NCBI GenBank assembly: GCA_964016885.1
Contig: OZ024740.1
Coordinates: forward strand, 54,002,001 to 54,066,000
DNA length: 64,000 nt
Direction of reading: 5' to 3'
Source: Eledone cirrhosa
Lineage: Eukaryota
Below are positions 8,142-62,800 of this stretch, piece by piece. Both the position numbers and the translations under genes were made by a program. Position 1 is the first letter of the stretch. Each line of letters opens with the position of its first letter. The notes below the pieces were generated by a model that worked only from the letters and a program-made list of their open reading frames with translations, was not told where the DNA came from and ran no database searches.

Positions 8142-9382
8142 TACGGGGTAACAAATAATAGTTAAATGCAGTCCACTTAGGTAAAGTCCAGTTATGTTAT
8201 TCCAGGTAGTGGATGATATTAACGCTTGGCTTGGTTTGACTCAACAAGGCGTTTTCATAGTGATGCTGCGGGTATGCCGTAATTCCTATGTTGTAAACAC
8301 TTGGAGTAATAATAAATCAGGAAAGAAGGTTGACATGGTTTGCTATACAAAAAAGGTTTAATCACATAGCTTACATTTGTTTCACTGAGCTGTTAGGTCT
8401 AGAGATCGCTATTCGCTTATTTTCGCGCTACTCGATCGCCAATACAAAATTATAACCAGTCAGATCTTCGGAGCATGCGAGAATGAAGAAAATACACAGG
8501 CAAGAAAAGAATAGAATATACAGGCTACTATATGAAGTAGTAATGGCATTCAATTAGAACAATAACAACAATTACAACAATGCTATCAATAAATTATTTA
8601 AGGAGACCCTGACATTACTACTACAATGTAACTTTACCTTCTTTTTGCCATAATTACAATTAGCACGCTTATCTCTTTGCATGTATGTATATTTTTGTAC
8701 GAGTGTATATTGATGTGTATATATGTGTCTATGTACACATGCATGTGTATATATGTATATATATATAAATATATATATATATATGTGTGTGTGTGTGTGT
8801 GTGTGTGTGTGTGTGTGTGTGTGTGTGTGTGTGTGTGTGTGTGCGTAAATATATGCGTATATTACTTCGTTAACCTCTGTATTAACTCAACATCTATTTG
8901 TCCCACTCATGTATACTATTGATGATGAAGAGAAAGACTGTAAACAGTAGCTTATCTTTAAAATTTAAAATTGATATACACTTCGATACTCTGTACATGC
9001 CATACGCTTTCTTTTGCCTCATGACAGCTAGTTTTACACGCCGTAACGTTAGATACATTATATACCCCCACCTAAGTAATGTCAGGGTCTCCTTAAATAA
9101 TTTATTGATAGCATTGTTGTAATTGTTGTTATTGTTCTAATTGAATGCCATTACTACTTCATATAGTAGCCTGTATATTCTATTCTTTTCTTGCCTGTGT
9201 ATTTTCTTCATTCTCGCATGCTCCGAAGATCTGACTGGTTATAATTTTGTATTGGCGATCGAGTAACGCGAAAATAAGCAAATAGCGATCTCTAGACCTG
9301 CCAGCTCAGTGAAACAAATGTAATCTATGTGATTAAACCTTTTTTGTATAGCAAACCATGTCAACCTTCTTTCCTGATTTAT
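8142..9382 (-). mobile_element. Fold-back PLE-derived element in (TA)n
   Basis: About 308-bp inverted arms 8312-8619 and 9075-9382, unpaired tail 8142-8311, hammerhead-like motif in the arms. Confidence 0.75.
9217..9330 (+). ncRNA. Atypical type I hammerhead-like motif (U4C core, long stem II)
   Basis: CATGCT-CCGAAGA-TCTGACTGG...CCAGCTCAGT-GAAAC-AAAT-GTA; the inverted copy at about 8363-8479 has AGCTATG closing stem I. Confidence 0.4.
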
Positions 9383-9469
9383 ATGTATATATATATATAT
9401 ATATATATATATATATATATATATATATATATATATATATATATATATATATATATATATATACATATA

Positions 9470-9627
9470 TAAAATAAAATAAATAAGTCAAATGTTTAAA
9501 ATTTGACATATTTATTTATTTTATTTTACATTACTCCGGAGTAACCAAACCAACCTTCTCACTTCGTCGTGTGCTCCAATCTGCATACTGAGGTGTTGGT
9601 ATACAACCAACATATACTCAAAATTTA
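9470..9627 (+). mobile_element. Mini fold-back plus tail element in (TA)n
   Basis: AAAATAAAATAAATAAGTCAAAT / ATTTGACATATTTATTTATTTTATTTT hairpin, then a tail ending CAACCAACATATACTCAAAAT; related minus-strand copy at 41235-41320. Confidence 0.55.
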
Positions 9628-9654
9628 TATATATATATATATATATATATATAT

Positions 9655-9849
9655 ATAGGAACCAGTAAGACCCCGACAGCTGAGCTCAAGCCGTCTCGAC
9701 GGCTAATTCTGGACTCAGAATTAGCCGTCGAAACGGCTTGAGCTCAGCTGTCGGGGTCTTACTGGTTCCTATTACCCACTCTACTACCTCAAGTATTGAG
9801 TACTTTGGTGCGTTATGGTCCACCTGGTTCCTTACCACATTTCCTTCGT
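9655..9849 (+). mobile_element. About 195-bp hairpin plus tail non-autonomous PLE derivative
   Basis: 57-bp arms 9655-9711 and 9716-9772 (1 mismatch, 4-nt loop), tail 9773-9849 homologous to the 3' end of the PLE at 15410-15488; both flanks (TA)n. Confidence 0.85.
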
Positions 9850-9871
9850 TATATATATATATATATATATA

Positions 9872-59529: not shown

Positions 59530-59740
59530 ATTGTTTCTACTTTTGGCACAAGGCCAGCAATTACACAGTGTATTACTGGTCAAATAATAATAATAATAGT
59601 TTCGGATTAGGGACAAGGCCAGTAATTTTGGGGGAGAGGAAAGTCAATGAAATCGACCTCAGTGCATTACTGACATTTTCTTTTATCGACCCGTAAGGAT
59701 GGAAGGCAAAGCTAACCTCGGCAGGATTCGAACTCAAAAT
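59530..59740 (-). mobile_element. SINE family A pieces (two tails)
   Basis: TTGTTTCTACTTTTGGCACAAGGCCAGC and a second copy reaching GGATTCGAACTC. Confidence 0.8.
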
Positions 59741-59754
59741 ATTACGTTGCAGCC

Positions 59755-61885
59755 CATTATGTTACTGGCCACAAAGACTGACAGAGAGGGGCCAATACAA
59801 TAACTGGGACAGTGTGGATTTACAAACTTCGAGTAAAAATGATACAACATAACAAATAACCATACAATTATAACAATTAAAATGTCACATTAATGAGAGT
59901 ATCACTCAGGAGTGAATCAGGAACCCCATTCATCTTAAACCACCCTAATTTCCAAGAGCACAATTGGTGTACGCCCCTCTCCTCTCCAAACTAGCCAGCT
60001 TACAACCACATAGTCGAAGTCGGCCCATACAAATGGGTCATCTACGTTACAATCACACACCTTTTAACAAATATAATGAAAGCAGCACTTCCCTGTCCAA
60101 CCTCAACTTACTTTCTAAGTGGAACTGGAAAAAGTTGATGAGGGATTGGATGAAGCAAAAAGTGTCTGTCCTTTCTGTTGCATCCATCACACAACCTCTT
60201 TCGTTAAAACTACTAGGCAGAAGTAAACTGCCTGTTATTCCCGGCCAAAAGAAGGCGGCGAGGCGATTGTCACGAAGAACGTGACTGATAGCCGGATCTC
60301 TCCTACAGGTGATAATCTCTATTCGATAAAACTCCACAAGTCAGTAATGCACAGACACTGGATGAATGTGTGCAGAACGGTTTGGTCGCTCTGTGCGCAA
60401 CTCGACCAAGTCTGCCTAACAACACTCCCGTGCCCATAGAGTTTATCTCAAACCGGCAGTGCCAAGCGAGGGATTTCTGGAAATTATGCATAGTCCCCAG
60501 CTCGAAAGTCCACCGGGACAGATTTGCTAATTCGTTCTTGTCGACGCCTAGAATCTCTACGAGAGCGTGGTCGTTCATTCTCTATAGATTTCTAGAGTGG
60601 AATTTCCACTGACGACATTGTCTGTCTGCTAGAGAGTAGTAAGCGCTTGGCAACATTCCTGATGCCAAATACCCAGTCTCGGTCTCTTCTAGTCAAAGAG
60701 ACTAGTTAATGAAAACTTGTCTGAAAAAACGGTGACCACACCTTTTCATCGTTTAGGAGTATCTGAGTATTCCGTAGCCTCAGCACATGTTTGCGCATCA
60801 TGAGCCACAGCTTCCACCCCGCCGCATACACACACCTCGCCCCGCACAAAGAATGCTTATAGTAGATGGAACGCCTCAGTGATGGAATCTGTCAGTTTCA
60901 CAAGAAGTTGAAGAGCAGGTATTCCAAATTGGTGATCCGTGATAGGGGCCAAAGCACGATGGTCAGGCGGTAATTGATGACGAACGCGTTCGCCATCTCT
61001 CCCTGACTTTACAGGGATAGCTCCCCCTTGGCCCATTTCTGGGTGAGTGTGAGCACGCTGATCGTTACCTAGAGAGAGTTCTTATCCACGTGGAAGTCTG
61101 GTTCAAACCAAACCCCGAACAACTTCACCAGTCCGTCCATGAAGCGTTCGACGACGTTGTCGATCGGCATGGATTTGCCTCACTAGTTGCTGAGTTACAA
61201 ATCCAACAACTTTTCAGGCTTCAGTTTTGTTCTCGTCAATCATTCCTATTCCTCTAGGAAGTTGTCGACCATCTCCATTTGCTAGGTATTTGTCACCATC
61301 ACGGTGACGCCGTCCACATATGCTCTTACACGTCCCGGTTCGAGCAGGATGCGCTGCAACAGTTCTAGGTTCAGCAGCAATGGCTTGAGAGTCAATATGT
61401 ACAGAAGGAAAGAGAGAGGTCATCGTTGATGAGCGAGCGTGCGATCTGGAACGGTTCCGAATGAGGTACACCTATCAGGTACTGCTGCATTGCAGCAACC
61501 CAACCACTAAACACGGGACCGAAGCCGGCTGTCTTGAGGGTAGAATCCAAATATAGATGGTCGACCGTATCGAAAGCCTTCGGTTGATCTAAATTGATTA
61601 GAGCCCCACCAAAGCCAGGTTTCTTCCATAACCTCTCTATGATGTAACGCATAAGGTGGAGGTTGTCGAGTATGGACCTGTGGGGATTGCGCAGGTGTGC
61701 GTTCCTCTTACCAAGCTGTCGTAGACAAGCACCCACTTTGTTACTAGAAACTCGGCCAACATCTTAAACTGTCAGTTTAGCAGAGTTTGGGGCCTGAAGT
61801 TGTCTAAAACAGACCTCTTATCTCCATTATCAGCGAAATTATGCGCCGACACACAACACAAATTACTACCGTTCTGCTGCTAGTC
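59755..61885 (-). mobile_element. Older 5'-truncated Tx1 copy of the same family as 183-5919
   Basis: LDNLHLMRYIIER...GFGGALINLDQPKAFD, NFQKSLAWHC, QSLINFFQFHLE; 3' UTR 59762-59840 aligns with 207-290. Confidence 0.88.
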
Positions 61886-62597
61886 CCACAAAATTCCAAA
61901 GTGCCTCCTAGATGAATGAAACAAAGACAAAAGAGAAGAAAAAAGGCATGAAGTAAGATATCGTGTTAAAAAAAGAAACCCATATATACATTATATGTGA
62001 GTGTGTTGTGTGTGTGTGTGCAGAGACAAGTTTCTTATATTTTAGTAACAAACATAAAATCGCTCAATACATGTTCTAAAAGTGTAATATAACTTAATTT
62101 ATGTGAGATGAAAATGATTAACACACCCTAACGATGGTTTCGACCGGCTGCTCCTTCAAACGACCATAAAAGTAGTAGCGTGGAAAAGGAAGAATCTAAT
62201 TCAGAATAGGTGGAGTAGAAATTCTAGCTCATCTGGTCAAGTATATGTTATAGATCGTCGGGTGTCGTCTATAAATATATCAAGTAGCCAGATGAGATAC
62301 TTCAAGCCATCTTATCCGACGATTTAACAGTTACGCCAATTTACCTCGCTGGACTAGTCCATTATTTATCGAACCCAAAAAGAGTATAGGTGAATTGACC
62401 GCTTCGTCTATGTGTCTGTGCGTATTTCTGTGTCTATGTACTCACACACACACACACACACACACACACACACACACACACACACACACACACACACACA
62501 CACACACACACACACACACACACACACACACACACACACACACACACACACACGCGCGCGCACACACACACACACACACACACACACATATATATAT

Positions 62598-62800
62598 ATA
62601 TGAACCAATTTAGAACCCCGACGGCTGAGCTCCGGCCGTTCGAAAAGCTAGATCTGAACTCAGTTCGCATCTATCAGCTGAAACGGCCTGAGCTCAGCCG
62701 TCGGGGTCCTGAATTTATTCATATTACCCACTTTACTATCCCAAGTATCGAGTACTCTGGTGAGTAATGGTCTAACTGGTTTTTACCACCTCCAATCTGA
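62598..62800 (+). mobile_element. Diverged hairpin plus tail PLE derivative (9655 family)
   Basis: CCCCGACGGCTGAGCTC / GAGCTCAGCCGTCGGGG arms, tail TTACCCACT...GAGTACT...TACCAC. Confidence 0.75.

Follow-up and report, generated by a model that had tools for sequence, protein, structure and literature searches.

Fold-back inserts in (TA)n tracts of the Eledone cirrhosa genome as probable truncated end copies of Penelope-like elements

A stretch of 64,000 nt from the 3.0-Gb genome of Eledone cirrhosa (hereafter the window; contig OZ024740.1, positions 54,002,001-54,066,000, numbered here 1-64,000) carries a series of fold-back inserts within its (TA)n tracts, raising the question of what these inserts are and how each comes to contain an inverted copy of itself. 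The initial annotation listed fifteen of them and regarded them as a multi-family, non-autonomous ribozyme-retroelement system. They share the insertion structure already described for Penelope-like elements (PLEs), namely an inverted pseudo-long terminal repeat (pLTR) plus a tail (PMC8557442, PMC3846280), and they are real and abundant. With a probability of about three in four, they are truncated end copies of several TA-residing PLEs, each likely built anew from two cDNAs primed on opposite strands, and likely immobile. The addition made to the known PLE plan consists of two fixed points at which the copied strands stop. How PLEs build inverted repeats and what their hammerhead ribozymes do are both stated to be open in PMC8557442 and PMC11167929, and expansions of Penelope elements are known in coleoids (PMC8967140).

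Architecture of the inserts and their association with (TA)n

Insert architecture was read from self-alignment, a per-element table and the sequence itself. The common plan initially claimed, an inverted arm, a direct arm and an unpaired tail with TA runs on both outer sides, holds at 13 of the 15 sites listed (8142, 9470, 9655, 11579, 13415, 18278, 18821, 22193, 26281, 27625, 28335, 52392 and 62598), while site 37200 is a palindrome between TA runs lacking a tail, and site 50921 is a nested palindrome with TA on its left side only. Insert lengths of 154-2291 bp agree with the range first given (about 160 bp to 2.3 kb), arms cover 18-851 bp with identities of 83-100%, and tails measure 56-168 nt, those of family C (56-59 nt) falling below the lower bound of the 70-170 nt first reported. 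Sequences had been described as dissimilar, but not all are; the 15 inserts group into nine families, A (9655, 11579, 13415 and 62598), B (22193 and 26281), C (27625, 28335 and 37200) and six singles. As anticipated, only some of the listed inserts retain PLE coding sequence, these being 13415 and 18821 (tblastn).

Contact with TA, defined as a family end adjoining (TA)3 or longer, was evaluated in 800 kb of unselected sequence, comprising 600 kb evenly spaced over contigs C2-C4 and 200 kb adjoining the window (whose contig is labelled C1), with the background rate and one short interspersed nuclear element (SINE) as controls. Tail ends adjoined such runs in 19/21 cases for family A, 9/10 for B, 8/9 for C and 11/13 for F, and arm-only ends did so in 13/14, 13/13, 6/7 and 0/1 cases, respectively, versus 4.7% for the background and 8/112 for the SINE; family H ends gave 0/2. 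In addition, a de novo scan of the 600 kb retrieved 57 fold-backs with the order TA-arm-tail-TA. The TA association is far above chance, and the enrichment over background that the initial annotation had proposed to look for is present. A raw count of inverted repeats (171 of 294 pairs touching TA) overstates the enrichment owing to masking and to a single locus contributing 79 pairs, and the TA case therefore rests on the family-end counts in the 800 kb. Target-site duplications are unreadable within TA runs. Rough extrapolation gives ~8 x 10^4 family A ends and ~3 x 10^5 fold-backs genome-wide.

TA flanks of 50 young copies show mean lengths of 34 and 38 bp (72 bp combined), versus 33 bp for the length-weighted background run and 63 bp for the length-weighted mean of runs of at least 40 bp, background runs being themselves partly flanks. 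These lengths are suggestive, fitting a net gain of TA and equally a preference for long runs. Fold-backs of different families are also seen stacked on each other's TA flanks, forming clusters (L060:1501-1900, L184, L186, L198 and L199).

The family A parent and the origin of its short copies

When used as a query, the open reading frame (ORF) at 13542 retrieved numerous copies whose open frames are close to 790 aa. In 20 fetched loci the family A parent is a 3.5-kb unit with a single 717-aa frame for reverse transcriptase (RT) and C-terminal GIY-YIG, whose arm and tail are in most cases 98-100% identical to the 192-bp hairpin of the window; the arm and tail of a short copy are 100% identical to a young 717-aa element. 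Parent pLTRs display tandem and inverted arrangements, an optional tail and an adjoining inverted truncated copy. The 717-aa ORF contains YRDD and YIG motifs and its top homologue carries PF01541, a Pfam scan yielding no match on the PLE pieces or on the whole ORF. Hydra-clade motifs are found at RLRW 35, DKT 117, CxCX5C 572, CxxC 670 and CxH 698, with RWR where the Hydra definition gives RWK and no CCHH motif seen by eye, and the RT closely resembles the published Hydra RT alignment, also by eye. As judged from its sequence, the family A parent is a young, intact Hydra-clade PLE. A "Neptune-like" label was dropped after the motifs matched the Hydra-clade definition. Hydra-type coding sequence is likewise associated with families F and J, and the hammerhead stems of family B are common to family J. 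The PLE origin and the multiplicity of families initially claimed are supported.

With Hydra-clade PLEs having a C-terminal endonuclease (PMC8557442), family A shares the RW(K/R), DKT, CxCX5C linker, CxxC and CxH motifs, the (TA)n preference and the inverted 5'-truncated copy plus tail. On the contrary, its unit is longer (3.5 kb versus generally <3 kb), as is its tail (80 nt versus 30-40), it differs from the Hydra elements of that work in its U3-A8 hammerhead with a long stem II spanning the inferred start, and it exhibits end pile-ups, none being described in the available text of that source. A (TA)n-inserting Hydra family, Hydra-1_Obim, is known from Octopus bimaculoides (PMC8557442), and family A looks unlike it by eye at the 11 of 16 "obim" places compared. 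Separately, read runs of two other organisms contain low-depth contigs identical to the young family A pLTR, which may reflect relatives, transfer or contamination.

Palindromic form, high copy number and TA flanks are also traits of miniature inverted-repeat transposable elements (MITEs), that is, TA-targeting DNA transposons with terminal inverted repeats, and repeat pipelines could misfile the fold-backs as such. Nonetheless, the inserts have a family-specific tail beyond one arm only, their inner junctions differ in each copy and the parent encodes RT and GIY-YIG, so that the DNA-transposon alternative named in the initial annotation is not borne out; it is already contradicted for families A, F and J, and is in general very hard to credit.

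Short copies might instead be non-autonomous masters, hairpins transcribed and copied in trans with fold-back in the manner of retrozymes or SINEs. The 40 of 40 scored best matches to 9658-9849, which are full length and 99-100% identical, would agree with such masters, as would some 123-127-bp junctions with hairpin-derived sequence on both sides, and family B and several others for which the fetched DNA yielded no coding parent. However, the 40/40 set was chosen by the query, and the 112-bp junction is present in 0/46 incidental family A short copies of the unselected sample; snap-back extension accounts for the longer junctions, the two commonest family A short subfamilies each match a long parent, and short A copies contain neither the 5' ribozyme half nor the upstream promoter region. 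Self-copying masters are an improbable explanation, although for family B, with no coding parent found, a non-autonomous master is conceivable. A clonal 192-bp master, hinted at by the near-identical matches, is rejected on the same 0/46 count, and in a comparison with non-autonomous PLEs (MRC1-like) the family A copies do not descend from a separate non-coding master. For family A, the non-autonomous ribozyme-retroelement claimed at first is not supported, junctions being individual and arms matching an autonomous parent.

The features of the short copies themselves point to their origin. Their outer ends are fixed and their inner junctions variable, either strand may be the longer one, and family B junctions vary too, including a mirror pair. 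Relative to the tail, the 4-nt loop is seen in either orientation, at 381 versus 201 genome-wide and 18:12 among 30 perfect copies. On contig C1, where 39/39 flip and 24/25 flop matches were examined and 53 kept after dropping 10 that were not colinear, the flip:flop ratio is near even when young (14:15 at <=1 arm mismatch) and 17:7 at >=2 mismatches, flop copies are no older than flip (p 0.077) and both forms are present in five haplotypes. Subfamily markers are the same on both arms in 39/53 of these copies, versus 13.6 expected and a maximum of 24 in 10,000 permutations, and the older short subfamily is matched by long parents of its own at 8/15 loci. Considering (i) the loop in both orientations, (ii) the agreement of arm markers, (iii) the unique junctions and (iv) the parents of the older subfamily, each family A palindrome most likely arose from parent RNA at the time of insertion. 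The ribozyme belongs to the parent and appears to generate one class of template end.

The two end-points and the proposed insertion mechanism

Positions in the pLTR are numbered from +1, the initiator-like A of the family A pLTR (window 15350); in the parent the arm covers +1..+58, the tail extends to +138 and the ATG lies at +232. Among 44 strand pieces in the 800 kb, 41 end at or inside +1, 18 of them at -8..+6 and 23 deeper inside; the other 3 end beyond, and none falls within -60..-9. Summed contig depth rises ~13-fold across +1, a value that is not copy number and possibly reflects the assembly's own sample. The base at -1 in parents is T or C in 61/61 and G in 0/61, but G precedes +1 at 3253 sites genome-wide; all 30 of those inspected are junctions, and in 17 of these the extra G is not supplied by the partner arm. 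Either strand may carry the G, while A before +1 yields only 650 sequence matches genome-wide. At full-length L1 5' junctions an extra G marks copying of the cap (PMC11702581), and the wall at +1 probably corresponds to the start of a capped RNA. Confidence in the cap is only moderate, because C is equally frequent before +1, T-tailed ends are common and the listed joints miss the G position.

The second end-point involves the hammerhead. The parent would fold across +1 into a type I hammerhead with a U3-A8 core, a known PLE variant (PMC4209133), and a GUC at +39..+41, which places the predicted scissile bond at +41/+42. Across 37 parent haplotypes the core is U3-A8 in 21 and a C3-A8 mismatch, mostly from the older subfamily, in 16, and position 7 varies while the flanking core is kept. 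Ends were tallied in the first 50 of 317 young (manually) and the first 50 of 312 older ultra-short loci. In the young set, 20/50 palindromes end at +42 with untemplated filler, 8 of them with a single A or T, and a further 10/50 are blunt and ambiguous; in the older subfamily 7-9/50 end at +42 and 1 is blunt (Fisher p 0.006-0.027). The +42 ends fit ribozyme cleavage in vivo. RNA starting at +1 would contain only half of the fold, so that only read-through RNA would be cleavable.

In the window, "often with a hammerhead" proved an overstatement. By descriptor scan, 2/15 inserts (22193 and 26281) have the canonical type I core together with its stems, versus 0-1 matches per shuffle in the null (30 and 10 shuffles); 13415 and 18821 have variant cores, 9655, 11579 and 62598 the 3' half only, and the other 8 none. 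Rfam gave 0 matches at gathering score, the 150 E-value matches listed, out of 274, include no hammerhead, and of the minimum-energy folds of seven motifs one is significant (z -2.5). Two more TA-flanked PLE ends, at 34620-34860 (+) and 34915-35900 (-), carry canonical type I hammerheads (34759-34821 and 34949-35019), and the family of the latter is contiguous with Hydra-type coding sequence at two loci (L197 and L135). A further 217-bp inverted pair (26770-26986 / 29754-29970, 96%) has a minimal hammerhead per arm and no tail, with (TC)n(TA)n inward of each arm and later insertions in its spacer.

Minimal PLE hammerheads as described by Cervera and de la Pena (2014, PMC4209133) are likewise type I motifs in pLTRs, with the U3-A8 covariant reported in Schistosoma, and opposite-strand pairs 100-700 bp apart, there ascribed to truncated PLEs, are also found here; activity in vitro was low in that work, whereas the DNA ends seen here are suggestive of in vivo cleavage. 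Non-LTR retrozymes (PMC7229834; bioRxiv 10.64898/2026.07.22.740005) are also short, non-coding, PLE-related and hammerhead-linked. They are, however, head-to-tail tandems with a full hammerhead per unit and circular RNA, while each insert of the window is one inverted structure, in most cases lacking a complete ribozyme. This single inverted structure, together with the count of canonical hammerheads, does not fit non-LTR retrozymes.

In the mechanism proposed, the endonuclease would nick both (TA)n strands and both 3' ends would prime, one at the end of the tail and the other at the arm/tail border, aided by a match of TA to the RNA. At the arm border the RNA runs on into TA in 8/10 families, and after the tail it does so in the parent; carrying TA at both start sites, it could anneal to both TA ends. 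Both cDNAs would then reach the template's 5' end and be joined via end-joining, microhomology or snap-back. Since the start sites lie near the 5' end of the mRNA, priming there gives only short hairpins, and most events would produce short "strong-stop" hairpins that terminate at +1, the likely cap site; long copies would come from read-through RNA, and the ultra-short copies ending at +42 from read-through RNA cut by the hammerhead.

Extension of both target strands from two start sites bounding the tail has been obtained in vitro for a PLE, PAc (Poseidon, Anolis; Frangieh et al. 2024, PMC11167929), whose start sites are, as here, near the 5' end of an ORF-bearing RNA and for which ribozyme cleavage was dispensable in vitro. 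L1 twin priming (PMC11702581) shares a second RT from the other target end that causes an inversion, and the extra G at 5' junctions, but its inverted part lies upstream and barely overlaps, whereas here both cDNAs copy the same stretch and a palindrome results.

A single cDNA that self-primes, or that stalls at RNA structure, is a different route to a palindrome, with loop flips arising after insertion by arm recombination or cruciform resolution. For palindromes at the inverted junctions of PLEs, self-priming has been suggested (PMC3846280), +1 falls within a predicted hairpin and flip outnumbers flop 65:35. Against this, loop orientation is already near even in young copies and flop is no older than flip, as indicated above; the tail-less strand can get to +1 on its own, with the tailed strand terminating within the tail (L263, L284 and L287); and the +42 stops come after a G-run, not ahead of the stem. 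Such a route is thus unlikely, slightly more so than non-autonomous masters, and two opposite-strand-primed cDNAs are preferred.

Several observations weigh against twin priming with stops at a capped start and a ribozyme cut. C before +1 is as common as G (3139 sites genome-wide), with 3/10 inspected loci being parent variants, 5/10 partner-derived and 2/10 untemplated; T-runs ahead of short ends are common (7/15); and among the 15 of 61 joints listed, 6 fall on +1 and none on the G position. In an incidental set G is at -1 in 8/17, or 7/31 with looser rules, and a TATA-like box at -29 is not conserved across subfamilies and is given little weight. Family F ends form no sharp wall, family B has in the local data no clear ends at the hammerhead cut, and BLAST ends of old copies may stop early through divergence. 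No coding parent for families B, C, E, G, H, M and N was found in the fetched DNA. In addition, PAc initiates without target homology, in contrast to the TA microhomology considered here, and according to the available text of PMC11167929 it gives no RNA reads at the cut site, where genomic ends do fall here. Finally, +1, the cap and cleavage are all deduced from DNA.

It is conceivable, though doubtful, that the inserts record the whole PLE cycle, in which twin target-primed insertion would yield mostly strong-stop hairpins to the cap, a promoter-straddling variant hammerhead would cut only read-through RNA in vivo with its product serving as template, and the TA run would be lengthened in a telomerase-like manner. 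If true, such lengthening would generate further targets and lead to a genome rich in microsatellites and hairpins. The ends constitute an unusually sharp, testable record of PLE integration: two end-points whose untemplated bases differ, being G at the inferred start and A at the predicted cut, lead to precise predictions, as do the fewer cut-site ends of the subfamily with the mismatched core, and a young intact element exists. No prior description of strong-stop, twin-primed or cut-site PLE products was found by title and abstract, subscription papers, Repbase and Dfam being outside that search. Fold-back by-products may be a real source of hairpins. The potential for double-stranded RNA is reported to be unusually high, and is unexplained, in octopus, no repeat being named in the available text of PMC5625713, and, if the above is true, these hairpins are possibly its source, a link that is speculative.

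Features of the window

Coordinates of the inserts, including two absent from the earlier list, are collected in Table 1.

Table 1. Fold-back inserts and related PLE copies in the window.
Feature	Position	Strand	Details
Family E fold-back	8144..9382	-	arms 9075-9382 and 8312-8619 (98%), 455-bp spacer, 168-nt tail
Family M short fold-back	9472..9625	+	arms ~22 bp, tail 99 nt
Family A short copy	9658..9849	+	54-bp arms, 4-nt loop 9712-9715 ("flop" form), 80-nt tail; 3' half only of the parent's hammerhead, predicted cut before 9753
Family A short copy	11582..11777	+	junction unlike 9658..9849
Family A, 5'-truncated decayed Hydra-clade PLE	13417..15487	+	inverted arm 13417-13546, direct arm 15278-15407, tail; remnants of RT thumb and GIY-YIG 13545-14594; hammerhead core of variant type 15305-15311; +1 inferred at 15350
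Family H fold-back	18295..18623	-	43-bp arms, 100-nt tail
Family F short copy	18695..18807	+	67-nt inverted arm joined to last 48 nt of tail; absent from earlier list
Family F	18823..20855	+	~393-bp arms, 94-nt tail
Hydra-type RT remains in spacer of 18823..20855	19218-20125	-	51-54% to family A protein
Family B long copy	22197..24487	+	~850-bp arms, 91-nt tail; each arm with a type I hammerhead, 24292-24356 (+) and 22237-22301 (-)
Family G fold-back	25409..26267	+	30-bp arms, 123-nt tail; absent from earlier list
Family B short copy	26282..26730	+	~169-bp arms, 92-nt tail, hammerhead 26326-26391 (-)
Family C fold-back	27635..27920	-	59-nt tail
Family C fold-back	28337..28731	-	56-nt tail
Family C palindrome	37205..37503	+	TA runs either side, without tail
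Nested palindromes after TA run	50922..51475	+	TA on left only, no tail evident
Family N fold-back	52393..52906	+	18-bp arms, 75-nt tail, SINE inside spacer
Older family A short copy	62601..62800	+	79-nt tail

Other repeats accompany these inserts. At 36179-37160, a direct repeat of 424 bp (96%), accompanied by an inverted piece of 36 bp, resembles another pLTR partial tandem, and at 39700-41200 (-) an RT fragment of another PLE type gives a weak RVT_1 match and is Neptune-RT-like in the published alignment. Two decayed copies (69%) of a long interspersed nuclear element (LINE) with AP (apurinic/apyrimidinic) endonuclease and RT occupy 200-5960 (-) and 59762-61884 (-), with a further LINE RT remnant at 54473-55678. 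A degenerate telomere-like (CCCTAA)n array comes after a short hairpin at 50365-50800, and two adjacent palindromes made solely of microsatellites, (CA)(CT)(TA)(GA)(GT), lie at 38872-39090. SINE pieces are clustered, inverted and in tandem, beside an (ATT)n run at 44837-45580.

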